IMG/VR virus record: IMGVR_UViG_3300034073_003797
Location: 1-35,348 of that record
Reading direction: 5' to 3' (one strand)
Length of the DNA stretch: 35,348 nt
Origin: a virus
Lineage: Duplodnaviria > Caudoviricetes
The notes beneath the pieces are model-generated. The model was not told where the DNA came from and did no database searches. It saw only the letters and a program-made list of their open reading frames with translations. The first letter of the stretch is position 1; each line of letters begins with the position of its first letter. Shown piece by piece: positions 2,342 through 35,348 of this stretch. The translations under genes and the position numbers were made by a program.

Positions 2342-3235
2342 ATGAGTTTAAGAAAAACAAAAGAGTTCTTTATAGAACAGGCTAAAAAGGTACATGGTGA
2401 TAAATATGATTATTCACTTATAGATTATAAAAGTAACGGAACAAAAATTAATATAATCTGTAAAATACACGGGGAATTTAGCCAACAACCAAGACACCAT
2501 TTACATGGTAGTGGGTGTCCCGTATGTTATGGAACTAAATTATATAATAATGAAGAATTCATCAGTAAAGCTAAAAAAATACATGGTGATAAATACGACT
2601 ATTCAAACACCCAATATAATGGAGCACATACTAAAATTAAAATAAAATGTAAAAAACATGATTTCATTTTTGAACAGAAACCAAATAACCACTTATCTTT
2701 AAAACAAGGTTGTCCAATATGTAGTGGCACTAAGAAAAAATCACTATATGAATTTATTGATGACGCTAAAAAAATACATGGTGATAAATACGATTACACC
2801 CCAGTTGAATACAAAAATAGTAAAACAAAGATTAAAATAATTTGTAAAAAACACGGTTTATTCGAACAAACACCAAATTGCCATTTACATGGCAGTGGAT
2901 GTCCGACATGTAAGTCTTCAATTGGTGAAATTAGTGTGGAAAATTTTTTAATCAAAAATAATATAAAATATATAAAACAACATTGGTTTAAAAATTGTAG
3001 GAATATTTTACCATTAAAATTTGACTTTTATCTAATAGAACACAATATTTGTATAGAATTTGATGGTGTATATCATTTTAAACCACATTGGTCTGATAAC
3101 AATTCATCTAACCTAAAAAAATCAATAGAAAGAGATATGATTAAAAATAGATATTGTGAAGAAAATAATATAAAATTAATTAGAATTAATTATAAGGATA
3201 ATGTAGAAGAAAAATTAAATAATATATGGAATTAA
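2342..3235 (+). CDS. Homing-type endonuclease: 3x DUF723-like Zn repeats plus Vsr/PD-(D/E)XK domain
   Basis: Three HGDKYDY...GCPxC repeats; SIGE...LKFDFYL...IEFDGVYH; paralogue of 276..998. Confidence 0.75.
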   Translation: MSLRKTKEFFIEQAKKVHGDKYDYSLIDYKSNGTKINIICKIHGEFSQQPRHHLHGSGCPVCYGTKLYNNEEFISKAKKIHGDKYDYSNTQYNGAHTKIKIKCKKHDFIFEQKPNNHLSLKQGCPICSGTKKKSLYEFIDDAKKIHGDKYDYTPVEYKNSKTKIKIICKKHGLFEQTPNCHLHGSGCPTCKSSIGEISVENFLIKNNIKYIKQHWFKNCRNILPLKFDFYLIEHNICIEFDGVYHFKPHWSDNNSSNLKKSIERDMIKNRYCEENNIKLIRINYKDNVEEKLNNIWN

Positions 3236-4362
3236 AATTAGAAACTTGTCAAACTTTAAAATTAACAGAAACCCTTATGGGTTTTTATCGAAATCTTCAC
3301 ACTATAAAAGATTATTTTCTTGAGCGTAAAAAAGAAAAAGTGGTTAATTTAGACCATGATAAATACACCAAACTAATGTTCAATGATTACTCTATTGAAC
3401 CTAAAGATATGCAATTTGAAATTGAAATTATTGAGGGTAAATTATTTAATCCGGCGACACAGATTATTACATCTTTACCACTTGAATCCCAAATTGGTAG
3501 ACAAATTATGATTGGTGTTAAAGAAACCAATAGTAACAAATATGTCGGATTTATTCGTTTAGCATCACCTGTGTTGTCAATTAAACCTCGTAATGATTTA
3601 TTTGAAGGGTTTAAAATTACGGCAAATGAAGTTAACAAGTATATGATTAACGGAGCGATTATTGTTCCCGTCCAACCATTTGGTTACAACTATTTGGGTG
3701 GTAAATTATTAGCTCTTATTTGTTGTTCTCACGACGCACGTCAAATGTTAAAAGATAAATACGGTGACCGTATTGATACTGTTTTTATGGAAACAACTTC
3801 ACTCTATGGCGACCTTAAAGGTGTTAGTCAGTATGATGGTTTAAAACCATTTATGAAGTACGGTAGTATGACGGAGTCAGATTTATTCCTATTCCCCAAC
3901 GATGAGGTTTTTATGGAAATTAGAAACGTTCTAAGACCATTGTATGGTAAACCTGAATGGGGTGGTTCTATGGTAGATCCAGGTCCTTCTGGTCCTAAAA
4001 TGAGAGAATTTAATAAAATGATTTCTATTCTTAAAAATCATTTAAAAGTTCAAAACCCTGTTAAGTTTAAAGAATTCAGTGACTTCACTAAATCACATAT
4101 GAAAGCTAAAACCAAGAAAAGATATTATTACTGTAACTATGGTTATGATAATGTTGCAGAATATATTTCAAGTGATGGTAAAGTTCCTTTGGTTAAAAGA
4201 GATAATTGGGATAGATATCATGTTGAACACATGATTGAATGGTGGAAGAATAAAGCTCAATCACGTTATGAAAAATTAAAAGAAGAAGGTAGATTAAGAA
4301 ATGATTTGGAAATCTATACTTTGGAACGTATTGAATCAGGTAACGTTGATATGGTAAGATAA
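3226..4362 (+). CDS. DUF4338 / DruA-like protein (predicted Mom-like GNAT fold)
   Basis: GFIRLASP...PR, IVPVQPFGYNYLGGKLLAL, ETTSLYG...SQYDGL motifs. Confidence 0.7.
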   Translation: MELKLETCQTLKLTETLMGFYRNLHTIKDYFLERKKEKVVNLDHDKYTKLMFNDYSIEPKDMQFEIEIIEGKLFNPATQIITSLPLESQIGRQIMIGVKETNSNKYVGFIRLASPVLSIKPRNDLFEGFKITANEVNKYMINGAIIVPVQPFGYNYLGGKLLALICCSHDARQMLKDKYGDRIDTVFMETTSLYGDLKGVSQYDGLKPFMKYGSMTESDLFLFPNDEVFMEIRNVLRPLYGKPEWGGSMVDPGPSGPKMREFNKMISILKNHLKVQNPVKFKEFSDFTKSHMKAKTKKRYYYCNYGYDNVAEYISSDGKVPLVKRDNWDRYHVEHMIEWWKNKAQSRYEKLKEEGRLRNDLEIYTLERIESGNVDMVR

Positions 4363-5261: not shown

Positions 5262-5834
5262 ATGTACGTTGAAATTTCTCCGAGGCAATCTGGTAAGACA
5301 ACACGCCTTATTCAGGCTGCCTCGGATTATTTAAGACACAACCCAAACCATAATATCGCCGTTGTTGGGATTAACTCAATGAATACCAATGAGTTAAAAA
5401 GTAAATTTCTTAGGGAAGGTATTGGTATCAGTCGTATTAATTTTATGTCCGGTTGTTTATTTGGTAGATTTGACCAAGAACCCAATTATTGGTTTTTTGA
5501 TGAGTTTGGTTTTATGACAAGGGAAAACATACTACACCCAATTTTTAGAAGTGTAATCGAAAACGGTTATTATTGTACCACACCGAATCATATTAGCAGG
5601 TGTGAATCAACAAACACTATCATTGATTATTGTAGACAAAATGATATTCAAATCCATTTTAATAACCCTTGGACCGAAGAACGTATACAAGAACAAGGTA
5701 ATTGGAATGATTATGTTAGAGAATCTGTGTTAGGTGATTGGGTTAGATACATGGAAATTAACGGTTTAATTAATGGTATAAAAGAAAATTTGATTAGAAA
5801 ATTCATAAAGAAACATAGATTCACATCATGGTAG
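5262..5834 (+). CDS. Small P-loop NTPase resembling a terminase ATPase N-terminal domain
   Basis: SPRQSGKTT Walker A, YWFFDE Walker B, TTP motif III-like; no nuclease domain. Confidence 0.6.
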   Translation: MYVEISPRQSGKTTRLIQAASDYLRHNPNHNIAVVGINSMNTNELKSKFLREGIGISRINFMSGCLFGRFDQEPNYWFFDEFGFMTRENILHPIFRSVIENGYYCTTPNHISRCESTNTIIDYCRQNDIQIHFNNPWTEERIQEQGNWNDYVRESVLGDWVRYMEINGLINGIKENLIRKFIKKHRFTSW

Positions 5835-6775
5835 ATAGAGAACAGTTAAAACACGATTTATTAAACTTTAAGTTTTTATCACAAGAAGAACAAAAACTTA
5901 AACAAAATAAAAAATCAAACCCATTGTGGATTGAAGAAAGTATGGTTGATGATCCAAATAATATCATTCCCGAACTTATCCCTTTGGATTCAACCAAAGC
6001 TTTATGGAAGACATGGAAGGCAATTGAAGAACATGTTTCTTCTTTTCCTTTTAGACGTAGTCCAGGTCGTAACAATTACTTTTTAGTTAAAAACCAATAT
6101 GATGGTAAGAATTTAGGCATTCTTGATATTGCAGCAGATTTCCTAGCCTTAGGACCAAGAGATAGACACATTGGTTGGAACAAAAATGATAGAGTTTTAA
6201 GAAACAGAAACATCGCAAACATTTCGGTTTGTGTACCTACAAGACACTTTGGTTATAATATGTGCGGCGGTAAGTTATTAACTCTTTTGGCAGCTTCTGA
6301 CGTTGTTGGTAATCATTGGAAGGAAAAGTATAATGATGATTTGGCAGGGTTAACTGTAACGTCCTTATACGGTCGTGGGGTACAATACAATAGACTAAAA
6401 CACTTTAACTATTTGGGTTTAACTCAAGGACAGGGAACCGTTCAGATTGACGAAGATTTGTATCAACAAATGAGATTAATTGTTGAGGAAGAGGAAGGTG
6501 AGATTCTTGGGGGTAGATTTACAAGTGGTAAAAATTCTCGTATTAACATTATTAGAAAAGCTTGTGACTATTTAGATATTGATGCGAGACGTTTAACAAC
6601 CCATGGTAATCGTAGAGGAATTTATTGGTGTGATAGGGGTGAAAACACTTCTGAGTTTTTAAAAGGTGTTGATAAAGAATTTAAACCAAAAGATTTGAGT
6701 ATTGAAACTTTAACTAACCATTGGCGAGAAAGATGGGCTAATAAAAGAATTGAAAATGTTAAAGCTAAGTTATGA
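5828..6775 (+). CDS. Second DUF4338 / DruA-like protein
   Basis: SPGR, RDRHIGW, VPTRHFGYNMCGGKLLTLL, TVTSLYG...QYNRL motifs. Confidence 0.75.
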   Translation: MVDREQLKHDLLNFKFLSQEEQKLKQNKKSNPLWIEESMVDDPNNIIPELIPLDSTKALWKTWKAIEEHVSSFPFRRSPGRNNYFLVKNQYDGKNLGILDIAADFLALGPRDRHIGWNKNDRVLRNRNIANISVCVPTRHFGYNMCGGKLLTLLAASDVVGNHWKEKYNDDLAGLTVTSLYGRGVQYNRLKHFNYLGLTQGQGTVQIDEDLYQQMRLIVEEEEGEILGGRFTSGKNSRINIIRKACDYLDIDARRLTTHGNRRGIYWCDRGENTSEFLKGVDKEFKPKDLSIETLTNHWRERWANKRIENVKAKL

Positions 6776-13055: not shown

Positions 13056-13688
13056 ATGATTCCTTATAACAAGTATCGATACATATACCCACCCCGTCCC
13101 GAAATTAACTTACCATCTTCCGAGTTAACCAAATATGATACAGGGCAATGGGTGGGACAACCAAAATTAAATGGTTCCAATATTACAATCTTCACAAATG
13201 GAACTGAAATCCATATTTATAATCGTCACAGTAACCCTTTAATGAATGTTAAGATGGGTAACAAAGAACTTTTATCCTTACATAGGGGTAAAGGTTGGTT
13301 TGTTCTTAACGGTGAGTACATGAACAAGGCAAAAATTAATTCAAAAAATGAGGCCTTTAACCATAAATTAGTTATCTTTGATGTGTTGGTTTACAACGGT
13401 ATTCAGACAGTAGGAATGTCTTTTGATGAAAGAATAAAGTTGTTAAACATTCTTTTTGAATCAACAGAATATGATGGTTACATAAATAAAATTACCGATG
13501 ACGTTTACATTGTTAAATCTTTTTATGAAAATTTTAACACAATATATCAAAAAATAATACAAATCGATATGTATGAGGGATGGGTTCTTAAAAAAAGAAG
13601 TGCCAGACTTAAAAATGGTTTGTCAGAAAAAAATAATACGGATTCACAAATGAAGTTCCGTAAGCCTACAAAGAACTATAGTTATTAA
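13056..13688 (+). CDS. ATP-dependent ligase-like nucleotidyltransferase (adenylation domain only)
   Basis: Motif I QPKLNG, III LNGEY, IIIa IFDVL, IV EGWVLK, V MKFRK; no OB domain. Confidence 0.75.
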   Translation: MIPYNKYRYIYPPRPEINLPSSELTKYDTGQWVGQPKLNGSNITIFTNGTEIHIYNRHSNPLMNVKMGNKELLSLHRGKGWFVLNGEYMNKAKINSKNEAFNHKLVIFDVLVYNGIQTVGMSFDERIKLLNILFESTEYDGYINKITDDVYIVKSFYENFNTIYQKIIQIDMYEGWVLKKRSARLKNGLSEKNNTDSQMKFRKPTKNYSY

Positions 13689-14059: not shown

Positions 14060-14884
14060 ATGAGCACAGTAAACACAAAAAGATTTATCGACACTTCAGA
14101 AGAAAGCATTTCAATGTACCTTAAAGACGTTAGAAAGCTGGATATGATTACGGCTGAAGAAGAAATTGTCTTAGCTAAAAAAGTTAAAGAAGGTGACGTT
14201 AAAGCTACTGAAAAACTAATAAAATCAAATCTAAGGTTTGTTATTTCTGTGGCAAAAGAATACCAAAACCAAGGGATTCCTTTAGCAGATTTGATAGCAG
14301 AAGGTAATTTGGGTTTGATAAAAGCTGCTCAAAAATTTGATCCTGAACGTGGTTTTAGATTTATATCTTATGCAGTTTGGTGGATTAAACAATCCATAAT
14401 ACAGTCATTAAATGACCACGCCAGAACAGTACGTTTACCAGTTAATGTAACAAACCATATGACAAAACTGAAAAAAGATATTTCAGCTTTTGAACAAAAA
14501 CACGGACGTAAACCGACAGAGGCCGATATGGACATGACCGGATTAAACCAACCATTTTGTACGTCTTTAAATGAAACTATAAATGAAGACGGTGATGAGA
14601 TTATTGACGTTATTGAAGATAATTCATTTGTTAAACCTGATGAGTCCATGGAAAGACCTAACGAAATGTTAAAAAATGAATTAGAAAAAACTCTTTCAGT
14701 CCTATCACCAAGAGAAAGACAAATAATAGAACTTTATTTTGGTTTGGGTGGAACACCATTAACTCTTGAAGAAATTGGTGAGGACTATGGTTTGACCAAA
14801 GAACGAATCCGTCAAATTAAAGAAAAAGCCCTTCGTAAGTTGAGAAATAAAAGTCAGAATTTATTTGAATTTGTTTATAAATAA
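14060..14884 (+). CDS. RNA polymerase sigma-70 factor (RpoD/RpoS-like, no region 1.1)
   Basis: YLKDV region 1.2, SNLRFVISVAK, DLIAEGNLGL, FISYAVWWIKQ, TLEEIG...TKERIRQIKEKALRKL. Confidence 0.95.
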   Translation: MSTVNTKRFIDTSEESISMYLKDVRKLDMITAEEEIVLAKKVKEGDVKATEKLIKSNLRFVISVAKEYQNQGIPLADLIAEGNLGLIKAAQKFDPERGFRFISYAVWWIKQSIIQSLNDHARTVRLPVNVTNHMTKLKKDISAFEQKHGRKPTEADMDMTGLNQPFCTSLNETINEDGDEIIDVIEDNSFVKPDESMERPNEMLKNELEKTLSVLSPRERQIIELYFGLGGTPLTLEEIGEDYGLTKERIRQIKEKALRKLRNKSQNLFEFVYK

Positions 14885-31985: not shown

Positions 31986-32591
31986 ATGAAGACACTGTTT
32001 TTTTATTTATTATTTCTTTTTTCAATATTAAAATCTTTTGGACAGTGTGCCGGCCCTACAACATTCACCCTAACACCAACACCACCAGCAAGTGGATATC
32101 TTCCTAATACAACAGTAACAGTTTGTTTTACTTTAACAAGTTTTACACAAACAAACTCTAATTGGTTTGAAGGATTTGATATTAATCTAGGTACTGGATG
32201 GACTAACGTAACACCTATTTCAGCTCCCGCAAATTGTGGTGGTAATGGGACAGGGGGTCAATGGATTTGGATGAATTCTGTAACATCAAACGCTACACCT
32301 GTTACCACAGTAGGTCCTGGTTATTTTTTTGATTTAAACAATGATGGTAATCCAGGTAATGATTATGGTGATAGTAATGCCGGTGGTAATTGTACTTGGA
32401 CTATGTGTTTTAGTGTTAAAGTTTCTAATAATTGTACACCACAAAACTTATCAATACAAATAGCACCTGGTGCTGATGGGGTTTGGGGTAGTTATACAAG
32501 TACGTCATGTGATAATGTAAATTATACTAATGTATATACAGGTTTCAGTAACCCGACACCAGTAGTTGTTGGGCCAATAAGTCATAACTAA
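31986..32591 (+). CDS. Secreted beta-rich adhesin-like domain protein
   Basis: Signal peptide ending SFG/QC; Cys pairs, Ca-binding-like DLNNDGNPGNDYGD; ends GPISHN. Confidence 0.75.
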   Translation: MKTLFFYLLFLFSILKSFGQCAGPTTFTLTPTPPASGYLPNTTVTVCFTLTSFTQTNSNWFEGFDINLGTGWTNVTPISAPANCGGNGTGGQWIWMNSVTSNATPVTTVGPGYFFDLNNDGNPGNDYGDSNAGGNCTWTMCFSVKVSNNCTPQNLSIQIAPGADGVWGSYTSTSCDNVNYTNVYTGFSNPTPVVVGPISHN

Positions 32592-32609
32592 GAAATAAAA
32601 AAAAGAAAA

Positions 32610-33170
32610 ATGAAAAACCTACTTCTACTCATCTTTACAATCCTAACAACAACTGTATTTGGGCAGTTAACAACCACCAATCCCGATACCGTATGTTATC
32701 AAACTAATGGTTCTATATATCAAGTACCTTCATTAGGGGCGGGATATACTTACAACTGGAACGTTGTTGCACCTGGGGTTATCACAGGTGGTCAGGGTAC
32801 TAATCAAATTAATGTTAATTGGTCGGCAGCAAACCCAGGGTTAATTAATAACGCTGTTACAGTGACAGCGACAGGACCAGGAGGTTGTCAAAGTTCACCT
32901 GTTACAATAAATGTTTTTATTTTACAAGTCATACCAACAATCACTGCTGTGGGACCTTTATGTCAAGGCGGTCCTTGTGTTAATTTAGTTGGTAGTCCGG
33001 CAGGCGGTACTTGGTCAGGTACAGGAGTTAGTAACGGCCAATTTTGTCCAACAACAAGTGGTAACTTTAATATTACTTACACAGTAACTCAGAATGGTTG
33101 TACATTTACAACCACAACAAGTATCGTAGTAGTACCATTACCTGTACTATCACCAATACAACATAACTAA
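32610..33170 (+). CDS. Secreted PKD/Ig-like repeat protein (SprB-type repeats)
   Basis: Signal peptide ending VFG/Q; YTYNW....G.ITGGQGTN.I.VNW and GSPAGGTWSGTGV; ends SPIQHN. Confidence 0.75.
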   Translation: MKNLLLLIFTILTTTVFGQLTTTNPDTVCYQTNGSIYQVPSLGAGYTYNWNVVAPGVITGGQGTNQINVNWSAANPGLINNAVTVTATGPGGCQSSPVTINVFILQVIPTITAVGPLCQGGPCVNLVGSPAGGTWSGTGVSNGQFCPTTSGNFNITYTVTQNGCTFTTTTSIVVVPLPVLSPIQHN

Positions 33171-33172
33171 CA

Positions 33173-33739
33173 ATGAAAAGGTTATTTTACATATTAATCT
33201 TATTGCCAATTTTTGCCTTTTCACAACAAGAAATTGAAGTTTGTGAAGGTGATAATGTGATTTTTACTTATTCAACAGGTACGAACCAAATGGGTAGTAT
33301 AAATTGGTATATAGATAACACTATAAAAGGTGGGGGTCAAACTTTAACCGTTAATTGGGCCGATTACTCTGCAGGAACTTACATCATTACCGCGGATTTT
33401 ATTTCAATATACAATTGTCCGGCAGAACAAGTTTCATTTCAGGTCATAACTAAAGAATGTGAACAAACAACTGTGTACATACCTAATTCTTTTACACCAA
33501 ATGGTGATAACACAAACGAGTTTTGGGTACCAAAAGGGTTTAATTACCAAGAACCTTATTTTTTTATAATGAATAGATGGGGTAATTTTTTATTTAGTTC
33601 AAATAGTTTTGATATTGGTTGGGATGGAACTTACGGTGGTAAAATATGCCAAGACGGTGTTTATGTTTACGTTGTTAGATGGAAAGATAAAAGAGGTAGA
33701 CAATACACAGATTACGGACATTTAACACTTTTAAGATAA
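33173..33739 (+). CDS. Secreted protein with T9SS type B (gliding-motility-associated, CHU_C) C-terminal domain
   Basis: Signal peptide AFS/Q; YIPNSFTPNGD..NE.W...IMNRWG...GWDGT...QDGVYVY...GHLTLLR. Confidence 0.88.
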   Translation: MKRLFYILILLPIFAFSQQEIEVCEGDNVIFTYSTGTNQMGSINWYIDNTIKGGGQTLTVNWADYSAGTYIITADFISIYNCPAEQVSFQVITKECEQTTVYIPNSFTPNGDNTNEFWVPKGFNYQEPYFFIMNRWGNFLFSSNSFDIGWDGTYGGKICQDGVYVYVVRWKDKRGRQYTDYGHLTLLR

Positions 33740-33740
33740 A

Positions 33741-33771
33741 TTTGACTTTATTATAAATTTTCGTACATTTG
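33741..33771 (+). promoter_or_regulatory. Bacteroidota-type sigma-A promoter (leader promoter P1)
   Basis: TTTG-N19-TACATTTG. Confidence 0.75.
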
Positions 33772-33805
33772 TGAATATTTAATTATTACAAATACTCCGT
33801 TAACT

Positions 33806-33877
33806 ATGACACACAGGTTTTTCAAAATAAGAGAGAGAAGAGAATCGACTAAAAGTCGGACTGGGTGTCGCATGTAG
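33806..33877 (+). CDS. Putative attenuator leader peptide MTHRFFKIRERRESTKSRTGCRM
   Basis: 23-codon ORF between promoter and terminator; contains AGA GAG AGA AGA GAA at 33830-33844. Confidence 0.6.
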   Translation: MTHRFFKIRERRESTKSRTGCRM

Positions 33878-33936
33878 TTACGTTTATATACATACACAAT
33901 CTCAAAATCCGACTAAAAAAATGGTCGGATTTTTTG
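33845..33936 (+). promoter_or_regulatory. Transcription attenuator (1:2, 2:3, 3:4 alternative hairpins)
   Basis: TCGACT(33845)/AGTCGG(33854); AGTCGGA(33854)/TCCGACT(33908); terminator AAAATCCGAC(33904)/GTCGGATTTT(33924) plus T tract. Confidence 0.65.
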
Positions 33937-33964
33937 TTTTTATGAAATATTGTTTTTATATTTG
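33933..33964 (+). promoter_or_regulatory. Second sigma-A-like promoter (P2) before the tRNA cluster
   Basis: TTTG-N20-TATATTTG. Confidence 0.55.
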
Positions 33965-33984
33965 TACTGTTCTTTGAAAATAAC

Positions 33985-34056
33985 GCTCCCATCGTCTAGG
34001 GGTTAGGACGCATCCCTTTCACGGATGAAACGCGGGTTCGATTCCCGCTGGGAGTA
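33985..34056 (+). tRNA. tRNA-Glu(UUC)
   Basis: GCTCCCA/TGGGAGT acceptor, CATCC-CTTTCAC-GGATG anticodon arm, GCGGG-TTCGATT-CCCGC T arm; no encoded CCA. Confidence 0.95.
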
Positions 34057-34059
34057 CTT

Positions 34060-34139
34060 TGTGTTGTTCCCTTGAGAAAGGAAGACTCGAGCAGTAGTAT
34101 GAATGACTGGACTACCAACACAGAGGATTTCTCACCCTC
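34060..34139 (+). ncRNA. Unidentified structured RNA with kissing-loop potential
   Basis: TGTGTTG/CAACACA, TTCC/GGAA, GTAGT/ACTAC, GAGG/CCTC stems; loops TGAGAAA and TTTCTCA are complementary. Confidence 0.5.
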
Positions 34140-34143
34140 AAAT

Positions 34144-34269
34144 AGTCAGGTGGCGGAATGTTAGACGCTAGAGCTGGAGTTAGGTCACACGCATTTTGGG
34201 TTCGAGTCCCGTTAGTTGGGCCAGCTAGGAGAGCCGTAGACCATGTGGGTTCGAGTCCCACTCTGACTA
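34144..34269 (+). ncRNA. tRNA-like RNA with expanded, non-canonical anticodon region and a second T-loop
   Basis: AGTCAGG/TCTGACT acceptor, Leu-like D arm TGGCGGAATGTTAGACGC, T arm GTGGG-TTCGAGT-CCCAC, internal GGG-TTCGAGT-CCC. Confidence 0.7.
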
Positions 34270-34273
34270 CAAA

Positions 34274-34405
34274 GGTAAGTTAAAACGTATCGTCAAATCG
34301 TATGTCGACTATTGGGGTTATAGGTCACTGGACTATAAACCATAGATAAGGCCCAGCCAGTGGAGGTAAAATTGCAATGTAGTCCTCAAAATATGGGAAC
34401 TTACC
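34274..34405 (+). ncRNA. Unidentified pseudoknotted RNA (about 130 nt)
   Basis: Closing stem GGTAAGTT/AACTTACC; TTATAG/CTATAA hairpin whose loop CACTGG complements CCAGTG; GAGG/CCTC, CCCA/TGGG. Confidence 0.5.
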
Positions 34406-34420
34406 AATGTTCTTTGAAAT

Positions 34421-34497
34421 TGTAATATGTGGGGTCGGAAACGTACCCGAAAGGGGTCAGATCGAGGGCTTAAAAATTTTAACCCACCTCTATTACA
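34421..34497 (+). ncRNA. Unidentified stem-loop RNA with GNRA tetraloop
   Basis: TGTAATA/TATTACA, GTGGG/CCCAC, CCC-GAAA-GGG. Confidence 0.4.
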
Positions 34498-34503
34498 TAA
34501 TTT

Positions 34504-34574
34504 GGTTCCATCGTTCAAGGGAAGGACAAATCTCTTCTAAAGATTTAATGGGGGTTCGAATCCCTCTGGGACTA
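34504..34574 (+). tRNA. tRNA-Arg(UCU)
   Basis: GGTTCCA/TGGGACT acceptor, AATCT-CTTCTAA-AGATT anticodon arm, GGGGG-TTCGAAT-CCCTC T arm; no encoded CCA. Confidence 0.9.
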
Positions 34575-34605
34575 CAAAAAAAGTAAAAAAAAGTAAAATA
34601 GCGTA

Positions 34606-34634: not shown

Positions 34635-34670
34635 TAACAAACGTTCTTGAAAATATTGATTCTTTGATTA

Positions 34671-34719
34671 TCTGAAGCGGTTGGAGTAATTTCATCAATT
34701 AAAACAACTACAATTCAGA
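34671..34719 (+). ncRNA. Y-RNA-like stem A
   Basis: TCTGAA/TTCAGA closing stem; shares TGAAGCGGT...AGT.A...CATCAA with stem B; upstream of TROVE gene. Confidence 0.4.
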
Positions 34720-34949
34720 AACGTAAAACGATAAAGCCGAAAGGTTTTGTTTTACGAAAAAAGTGTTTAACTTAAGCGTTTGACTTACTCAAGCCTTAGG
34801 AGTTCGATAACCTCTCTAAAAGTTATTAAGTTAAGGTAAGGTCTTTAAAATCTTCTCGGGGTCACTCCCGGCCAATCCCCTAGATGGGGAAGCAAGAAGT
34901 AACCATTATTCTGAGAAATTCTCAGGTAATCTAAGAAATCATACAAATA

Positions 34950-35028
34950 TTCTGTTGAAGCGGTGATAGAAGTTACATCAAAACTATTGAAACTGAAAAA
35001 CACTTTTATCTAATATACTCAATAGGAA
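34950..35028 (+). ncRNA. Y-RNA-like stem B
   Basis: TTCTGTTGA/TCAATAGGAA and GATAGAAGT/ACTTTTATC helices separated by an AGCGGT internal loop; adjacent to TROVE gene. Confidence 0.55.
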
Positions 35029-35073
35029 CTTATTGTCCACTATGGTTGAAATATGCCCTGAGTGAGACCTGTT

Positions 35074-35106
35074 AGTCCCTACGAGTAAAATTGTAGGGAC
35101 TTTTTT
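35074..35106 (+). terminator. Intrinsic terminator immediately upstream of the TROVE gene
   Basis: AGTCCCTACGA-gtaaaa-TTGTAGGGACT-TTTTT. Confidence 0.85.
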
Positions 35107-35134
35107 ATTTTAAAAACAAATTAAATTACACATT

Positions 35135-35348
35135 ATGCCAAAGTTTGAATCAAAAGCAGTAGAAAATTTCGATGGTGGTATTTCTTATACCGTAAACCCA
35201 ATTAATACACTTCGTATTATAGCGGCTTCATCTATTTTTGGTGAACCTTCTTATTACAGAGGTTCTCATGATAAACCTTCTAATTTGTCTACTTTAAAAA
35301 GACATGATATTTTAGGTGTCTACACTGATCCAAGTGAGACTACTACCG
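35135..35348 (+). CDS. TROVE-domain protein (Ro60/Rsr-like), 3' truncated by window edge
   Basis: MPKFESKAVENFDGGISYTVNPINTLRIIAASSIFGEPSYYR matches the TROVE N-terminal N..GG..Y...P...L......F.E..YY pattern. Confidence 0.75.
   Translation, partial: MPKFESKAVENFDGGISYTVNPINTLRIIAASSIFGEPSYYRGSHDKPSNLSTLKRHDILGVYTDPSETTT

Follow-up and report, generated by a model that had tools for sequence, protein, structure and literature searches.

The phage DNA analysed here, 35,348 nucleotides long and referred to as the window throughout, carries a short Arg/Glu-rich leader and a terminator upstream of its genes for tRNA-Glu(UUC) and tRNA-Arg(UCU), and together these probably form a ribosome-read transcription attenuator that raises the output of the two tRNAs when AGA, AGG, GAA and GAG codons are decoded slowly. 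The anatomy of this unit, its conservation, the covariation of its terminator and the match between leader codons and tRNA block are found across a phage family. Judged by sequence comparison among these relatives, the feature is real and the main attenuator idea is well supported. The preliminary description of this DNA had proposed an attenuator with codons matching the tRNAs behind it; conservation and co-variation bear out that core, but not the masking of segment 1 or the control of downstream RNAs.

The window record is a linear virus sequence, 11% complete, whose genes include a sigma factor, DnaJ, RNase HII and a type IX secretion C-terminal domain. Promoter boxes of the type TAnnTTTG, the sigma-A box consensus in Flavobacterium according to the available part of PMC9723704, lead us to infer a Bacteroidota host. 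No cultured close relative was found: in 50,697 phage records, TROVE matched at 48.8% at best. The TROVE (Ro60-like) gene itself starts at 35135 and is cut by the window end (35135-35348); it was assigned by Pfam PF05731 on a full-length identical protein in locus L003. Relatives were gathered by TROVE-anchored searches, which gave 43, 46 and 80 loci. One close relative has a major head protein match, and another, G001, is 318 kb long and 96% complete. A single-protein search with the upstream 408-aa gene returned the identical record only; 13 distant homologues of this gene were found, and none of the 8 that were scanned has a tRNA nearby. The stretch directly 5' of the leader (31986-33739) is taken up by three genes whose products begin like signal peptides and include a PKD-like domain and a type IX secretion C-terminal domain; in relatives, this cassette is located on the opposite side of the Glu/Arg block. 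Elsewhere in the window, two Druantia DruA-family genes (3226-4362 and 5828-6775) reside within the phage genome, and a TATTTATA-type motif occurs at 23 sites on both strands, often just 5' of ORF starts and also behind P1-type promoters; it is a candidate promoter of the phage sigma factor encoded at 14060-14884.

All elements of the tRNA locus lie on the + strand. The promoter-like site P1 (33742-33771) consists of TTGACT at 33742 and the Bacteroidota -7 box TACATTTG (TAnnTTTG at 33764), and a P1-type motif stands ahead of every leader in the relatives. It is followed by a leader ORF of 23 codons (33806-33877) with the translation MTHRFFKIRERRESTKSRTGCRM and a stop codon, which is likely translated, judging from homologous leaders that keep the frame and whose indels are whole codons. 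The control codons AGA GAG AGA AGA GAA occupy 33830-33844, and a further AGG is codon 4 (33815-33817); promoter, ORF and codon run are all present as first described. AGR or GAR makes up 6 of the 12 leader codons 5' of segment 2 against 10% expected from 7,966 codons of 30 window ORFs (binomial p=6e-4), and none of the 10 tail codons, where Arg is encoded by CGG and CGC. The other two frames of the GA-rich run also yield Arg/Glu (0.33 and 0.25 vs 0.50 in the leader frame). Taken alone, the codon enrichment of the window is thus weak evidence, and the case rests on comparative data. Four RNA runs, of which a small share each was covered, gave no RNA contig over the leader, which is uninformative either way. 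Both ARAGORN and Rfam found exactly two tRNAs across the window, tRNA-Glu(UUC) at 33985-34057 and tRNA-Arg(UCU) at 34504-34575, confirming these as its sole canonical tRNAs; the Rfam leader families (Trp, His, Thr, Leu, Phe, T-box) had no match in the window at gathering score, the only matches being to tRNAs.

Folding of the leader RNA indicated how the terminator could be controlled. The 1:2 hairpin (33845-33859) is weak (-4.7 kcal/mol) and lies within a larger fold of 33800-33882 (-19.6 kcal/mol), in which segment 2 is hidden (P 0.46) when no ribosome is present. Folding and complementarity predict a 2:3 antiterminator at 33854-33914 (-16.6 kcal/mol), and a 3:4 intrinsic terminator with a U tract at 33904-33941 (-14.0 kcal/mol) was found by folding and by a separate terminator scan. 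The complementarity of segment 2 to the 5' arm of the terminator was tested against 300 dinucleotide shuffles (p=0.037). Ribosome positions were modelled with 12 nt masked from the A site and with segment 4 not yet transcribed. In this model, segment 3 would be paired upstream with a probability of at least 0.99 for a ribosome at codons 2-13, of 0.66 at codon 14 and of 0.02-0.49 beyond, which places the modelled switch edge at codon 13, the last Glu codon of the control run. The mutually exclusive antiterminator would accordingly be free with the ribosome on the control codons and covered once the ribosome advances. Since a ribosome on any of codons 2-13 permits 2:3, which disappears once codons 14-15 are reached, the switch in the model is coverage of segment 2. 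The originally proposed route, in which stalling frees 2:3 by masking segment 1, was therefore rejected as unnecessary; of the mutually exclusive hairpins proposed with it, 2:3 and 3:4 fold, but 1:2 is not the switch. Wherever the ribosome was placed in the window, the full RNA at equilibrium still favoured the terminator (P 0.83-1.0), and the switch therefore has to operate kinetically. Classical attenuators are likewise assumed to work under kinetic control. Formal covariation of 2:3 was not counted; the alignments set segment 2 in two registers.

Close loci carry Glu(UUC) and Arg(UCU/CCU) upstream of TROVE; exceptions are Phe(AAA), called in two loci, and Asn, called on a tRNA-like RNA of L211, both of which were treated as artefacts by assumption. 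In 14 loci and in L069, the Glu/Arg block is headed by a leader whose stretch 5' of segment 2 contains AGR/GAR codons, and the Arg/Glu runs of these leaders are of four distinct types. The window and L069 both keep R-E-R-R-E, with a synonymous GAG/GAA change. Across 13 relatives, 96.1% of the cells in the terminator stem are paired and 5 of 10 pairs are changed on both sides; compared with 500 shuffles, the covariation score was reached in 0/500 and the pair count in 88/500, the sequences being kin. Only L017 and L140 lack leader and tRNAs alike at this position; the genomes behind L004-L006 and L008 carry the Glu/Arg block further upstream. In the more distant L148, L152 and L155, no leader accompanies Arg(UCU). 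Arg/Glu leaders are weak in L211 (3/11 matching codons, p=0.095) and in block A of G001, which holds Glu/Arg tRNAs (5/18, p=0.03), and out of frame the Arg/Glu share of such leaders reaches up to 0.5. The checks suggested in the preliminary description, conservation of leader and hairpins and co-variation of leader codons with the tRNA set in related phages, both came out in favour of its core idea. Endonuclease genes or similar inserts are found between the terminator and the first tRNA, or between tRNAs, in L012 (2551-2952, HNH/NUMOD4), L013 (1127-1768, GIY-YIG), L130 and G010 (near 13300).

Further evidence came from the other tRNA blocks of these phages. Of the 26 tRNA matches in G001, 25 cluster in four blocks, and a promoter, leader and terminator head 4/4 of these blocks, each leader scoring top on its own block. 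Besides block A, the leader MKTLTNILFVMTLTVLFQFT precedes a Gln/Phe/Thr/Val/Leu/Met block (16/19 matching codons), MKNWHNISSIHSNRINSS a His/Asn/Ile/Trp/Ser/Arg(ACG) block (16/17) and MRKNYTYQPSTPKAGKVADKGCD a Tyr/Pro/Asp/Gly/Ala/Cys/Lys block (15/22). A pattern of the promoter only hit 39 places (27 distinct), with a short ORF next in 27/27 and called tRNAs in 25/27. In 38 leaders the terminator is located 17-33 nt past the stop codon. Without exception, the segment most complementary to the 5' arm of that terminator begins 65-79% of the way along the ORF; this complement has p<0.05 vs shuffles in 24/38, and 14/38 do not beat shuffles. Leaders that are not GA-rich match their blocks at 78-94% in frame, a level that drops to about background in the other frames. 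Of 40 amino-acid changes in the leader cores, 33 stay within the set of the block and 2 leave it. The codons track the tRNAs: a Glu/Arg block in G009 that also holds Leu(UAA) has TTA TTA GAA AGA TTA GAG AGA, Pro codons appear in leaders where the block has a Pro tRNA, and Arg is written as CGN before Arg(ACG) and as AGR before Arg(UCU).

With hand-curated tRNA sets, the diagonal was best in 1/40,320 permutations (8 families) and 1/720 (6 families), a curation made after seeing the data, in which weak calls, L229 and duplicates were dropped and L219 and L231 were scored on the family set. In a held-out test, the prediction was set down, unexamined blocks were then fetched, and scoring was left to an automated pipeline. 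The four new leaders match at 18/19, 7/15, 11/15 and 11/16 codons (p=2e-6, 0.018, 0.008 and 4e-4). In the automated test of 14 leaders, which included 10 already seen, every leader scored best on its own block (14/14, ties included; 0/200,000 permutations); this and the other permutation counts overstate independence because the loci are relatives. G010 was excluded from this test as the pipeline merged two of its blocks, and its second leader, 1.2 kb upstream, is a fifth held-out case that matches by eye.

The arrangement is specific to tRNA blocks in the DNA covered. Among 108 terminators scanned in phage DNA, 25 have a short ORF in range and 18 (17 distinct) have a promoter in addition; 18/18 of these complete units head tRNA blocks, in two cases with an inserted gene in between. 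A leader is missing from the solitary Arg(UCU) of G011, from the Met and Ile calls of G009 and G013 and from one sub-block of G010. In G009 (L292+L293, position 26058) and G013 (L298 reversed, position 4240), no leader separates a leader-type promoter from the tRNA-like RNAs and Met(CAU) tRNA behind it, and the initiator tRNA is possibly exempt from attenuation. A sequence-only model gave weak matches in 23 of 151 Bacteroidota genomes (at most 24.6 bits, mostly to the terminator part), in a search blind to diverged analogues; none of the best 10 cellular loci holds a tRNA. The promoter pattern was absent from 3/3 cellular TROVE genomes, and tRNAs were seen in 0/7 cellular TROVE loci scanned, of 39. 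The combination of terminator and segment 2 was discarded as a family finder in viral contigs: 6 of its 14 matches were family and 8 were chance matches without tRNAs.

The attenuator had also been thought to switch on the RNAs downstream of the tRNAs. The conserved RNA and TROVE form a unit with a separate promoter-like site, P3 (34606-34634). This promoter is kept where leader and tRNAs are missing (L017, L140), and in two relatives the unit is located kilobases away from the tRNA block. With P3 at their disposal, and being present even where the block is missing, RNA and TROVE are not supported as targets of the leader. The RNA-like region itself (34660-35110) contains two GAAGCGG...TACATC/TTCATC motifs, a motif that precedes most related TROVE genes, and its strong terminator (35074-35110) sits just 5' of the TROVE gene. 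Contigs of 270 and 332 nt with about 98% identity to it occur in two lake RNA runs; it had no Rfam match, including the Y RNA/YrlA partner of Ro60, and is a candidate Ro60 partner or TROVE leader. Shortly 3' of TROVE in G001, an RF-1-domain gene (L010, 5622-5993) encodes a possible ribosome-rescue factor.

Between the two tRNAs of the window lies a tRNA-like RNA (34144-34269, 29.5 bits) with a GTCAG/CTGAC acceptor and D and T arms, in which the place of the anticodon arm is taken by a long insert with a second T-loop-like hairpin. Its free folding was no better than that of shuffles (z=0.06). Three related RNAs are present in G001 (L208; 14840, 15058 and 15385), and near-identical copies with a different upstream flank appear in the RNA runs X1 and X2. 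Further hairpin-rich spacers of the block are 34058-34128, which by eye resembles a stretch of the Leu/Glu/Arg block of G009, 34274-34406, and 34420-34500, which is conserved in L086 and L130.

The second promoter-like sequence, raised as a caveat in the preliminary description, is real as a sequence. P2 (33933-33964; TTTG, 20 nt, TATATTTG) is a canonical -33/-7 site of full consensus 3' of the terminator stem and a likely bypass. It is kept in 5/5 loci of the window's clade, whereas the other 31 of the 36 loci have no TAnnTTTG box in the stretch from terminator to first tRNA. Boxes similar to P2 are found behind the terminators of Glu-containing blocks in G009 and G010, and a motif that we liken to boxA (GTTCTTTGAAA, 33969-33979) recurs behind the terminators of several blocks. 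In loci without P2 the first tRNA often follows the terminator stem by only 8-30 nt; with no promoter between, the tRNA must be made by read-through. Because P2 is of full consensus and conserved in the clade, transcription of the tRNAs in the window clade probably never ceases altogether, and the attenuator most likely acts there as a boost above basal P2 output. The attenuator might even work in the family at large while P2 drives nearly all tRNA-Glu/Arg transcription in the window clade, the leader being minor or decaying; the weakest Arg/Glu leader (L211) belongs to this clade. We consider this unlikely, as P1 is kept, the antiterminator folds at -16.6 kcal/mol with its edge at codon 13, and R-E-R-R-E persists in the window and L069 through a synonymous change. 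That the ORF is a chance product of a GA-rich spacer before an ordinary terminator, with the tRNAs made from P2, is highly improbable. GA runs do give Arg/Glu in all frames and about a quarter of the scanned terminators (25/108) have some short ORF in range, but the in-frame matching of the non-GA leaders, the restriction of complete units to tRNA blocks and the many relatives with no room for P2 largely refute such an origin.

An attenuator read by ribosomes could nevertheless respond to signals other than a lack of functional tRNA. A general sensor of translation stress, such as antibiotics or ribosome jamming, in which codon identity is secondary as in E. coli toiL, would profit from the property of the model that any stall at codons 2-13 frees 2:3; the four G001 leaders jointly cover all amino acids, and the window leader contains K-I-R and R-E-R, which we take to fit the +X+ macrolide arrest motif. 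Such a sensor has no need of block-specific codon matching, substitutions remain within the amino-acid set of the block, and +X+ is missing at the run in Glu/Arg leaders of the MNTV type. The +X+ motif was rejected as the general logic of the leaders; we regard the stress-sensor reading as very unlikely. Less remote, yet still rather doubtful, is that the same switch has a different trigger, sensing amino-acid starvation in the classical way or timing late protein demand. Stalling is blind to its cause, and classical attenuators read the supply of charged tRNA (PMC3082878, in the part available). This reading sits poorly with the match at the isoacceptor level (AGR vs CGN) and with neighbours of RNA-repair and ribosome-rescue function (TROVE and, in L010, the RF-1-domain gene); moreover, more tRNA would supply no amino acid.

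The switch mechanism itself is classical attenuation of the pheL type. Leader-peptide attenuators of amino-acid operons include trpL, hisL and the multivalent thrL and ilvL, and they share with the phage unit a short ORF with control codons, 1:2/2:3/3:4 segments, a U-tract terminator and read-through favoured by stalling. They control enzymes, whereas the output of the phage unit is tRNA genes, i.e. the sensed decoder itself; the phage unit further differs in being phage-encoded, in having one leader per tRNA block, in its isoacceptor-level match and, in the window clade, in its internal promoter. As the regulated genes are tRNAs and not genes for making or loading amino acids, we regard the unit as a variant and not a member of the trp/his/phe leader families. 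In E. coli pheM-pheST, attenuation by decoding of the own codon also controls a part of the decoding machinery, but this is a synthetase, cellular and for a single amino acid, in contrast to the tRNA of the phage unit. The available portions of the literature describe pheL-pheA as a leader-peptide transcription attenuator (PMC3082878) and clues of leader-peptide attenuators before amino-acid operons of Flavobacterium (PMC9723704). In the accessible text of PMC8421152, the cryptic trn operon of Anabaena is a tRNA array induced upon impaired translation and co-regulated with rtcB RNA repair; unlike the phage unit it is cellular, not codon-specific and regulated by direct repeats in its promoter, and that text does not contain 'attenuat' or 'leader'. 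Phage tRNAs that replace host tRNAs cut by defence nucleases, and TROVE proteins in some jumbo phages, are reported in PMC11555353, PMC10264068 and PMC7824862; they describe strong promoters or resistant anticodon loops, and the available parts of these texts are likewise free of 'attenuat' and 'leader'. The part of PMC6429828 consulted holds no phage case of attenuation. E. coli toiL resembles the phage unit in that an upstream ORF senses ribosome stalling, but according to the accessible text of PMC12121999 it works by translation attenuation together with Rho-dependent termination, is triggered by many antibiotics and controls a toxin-antitoxin pair. A leader-peptide attenuator of tRNA genes was not found among the top-ranked results of full-text searches, which covered mainly open papers and main texts without supplements.

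We propose that host RNA polymerase with a coupled ribosome would read the unit. A ribosome that stalls no later than codon 13 would leave segment 2 free to pair with the 5' arm of the terminator and permit read-through; a ribosome running on would cover segment 2 and let the terminator form. Newly made tRNA would restore decoding and shut its own block again (negative feedback), so that each block would report on its own codons only, and in the window clade P2 would provide a basal tRNA level that the attenuator tops up. The trigger is the weakest step: loss or overload of functional tRNA during infection, through host tRNA nucleases or phage demand, is the most plausible candidate, at somewhat below even chances, and is suggested by the consideration that extra tRNA would not cure amino-acid starvation. 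Attack by nucleases is the least supported part of the mechanism. Tentatively, these jumbo phages may possess a genome-wide, codon-resolved tRNA homeostat, in which per-block leaders would detect destroyed or exhausted host tRNAs and replace only those, an inducible counter-defence against tRNA-cleaving immunity; the Glu/Arg block beside the Ro60-like gene might then mark the tRNAs most often attacked by Bacteroidota defences.

Why phages carry tRNAs, for codon supply or for counter-defence, is an old question. If the proposed attenuator is correct, phage tRNAs would be supplied on demand by a codon-specific feedback switch, and attenuation would extend from enzyme operons to tRNA genes, the product being the thing sensed. 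The leaders would then be compact natural sensors of single isoacceptors, and as each would read out which tRNA becomes limiting in infection, the question would become a reporter assay.
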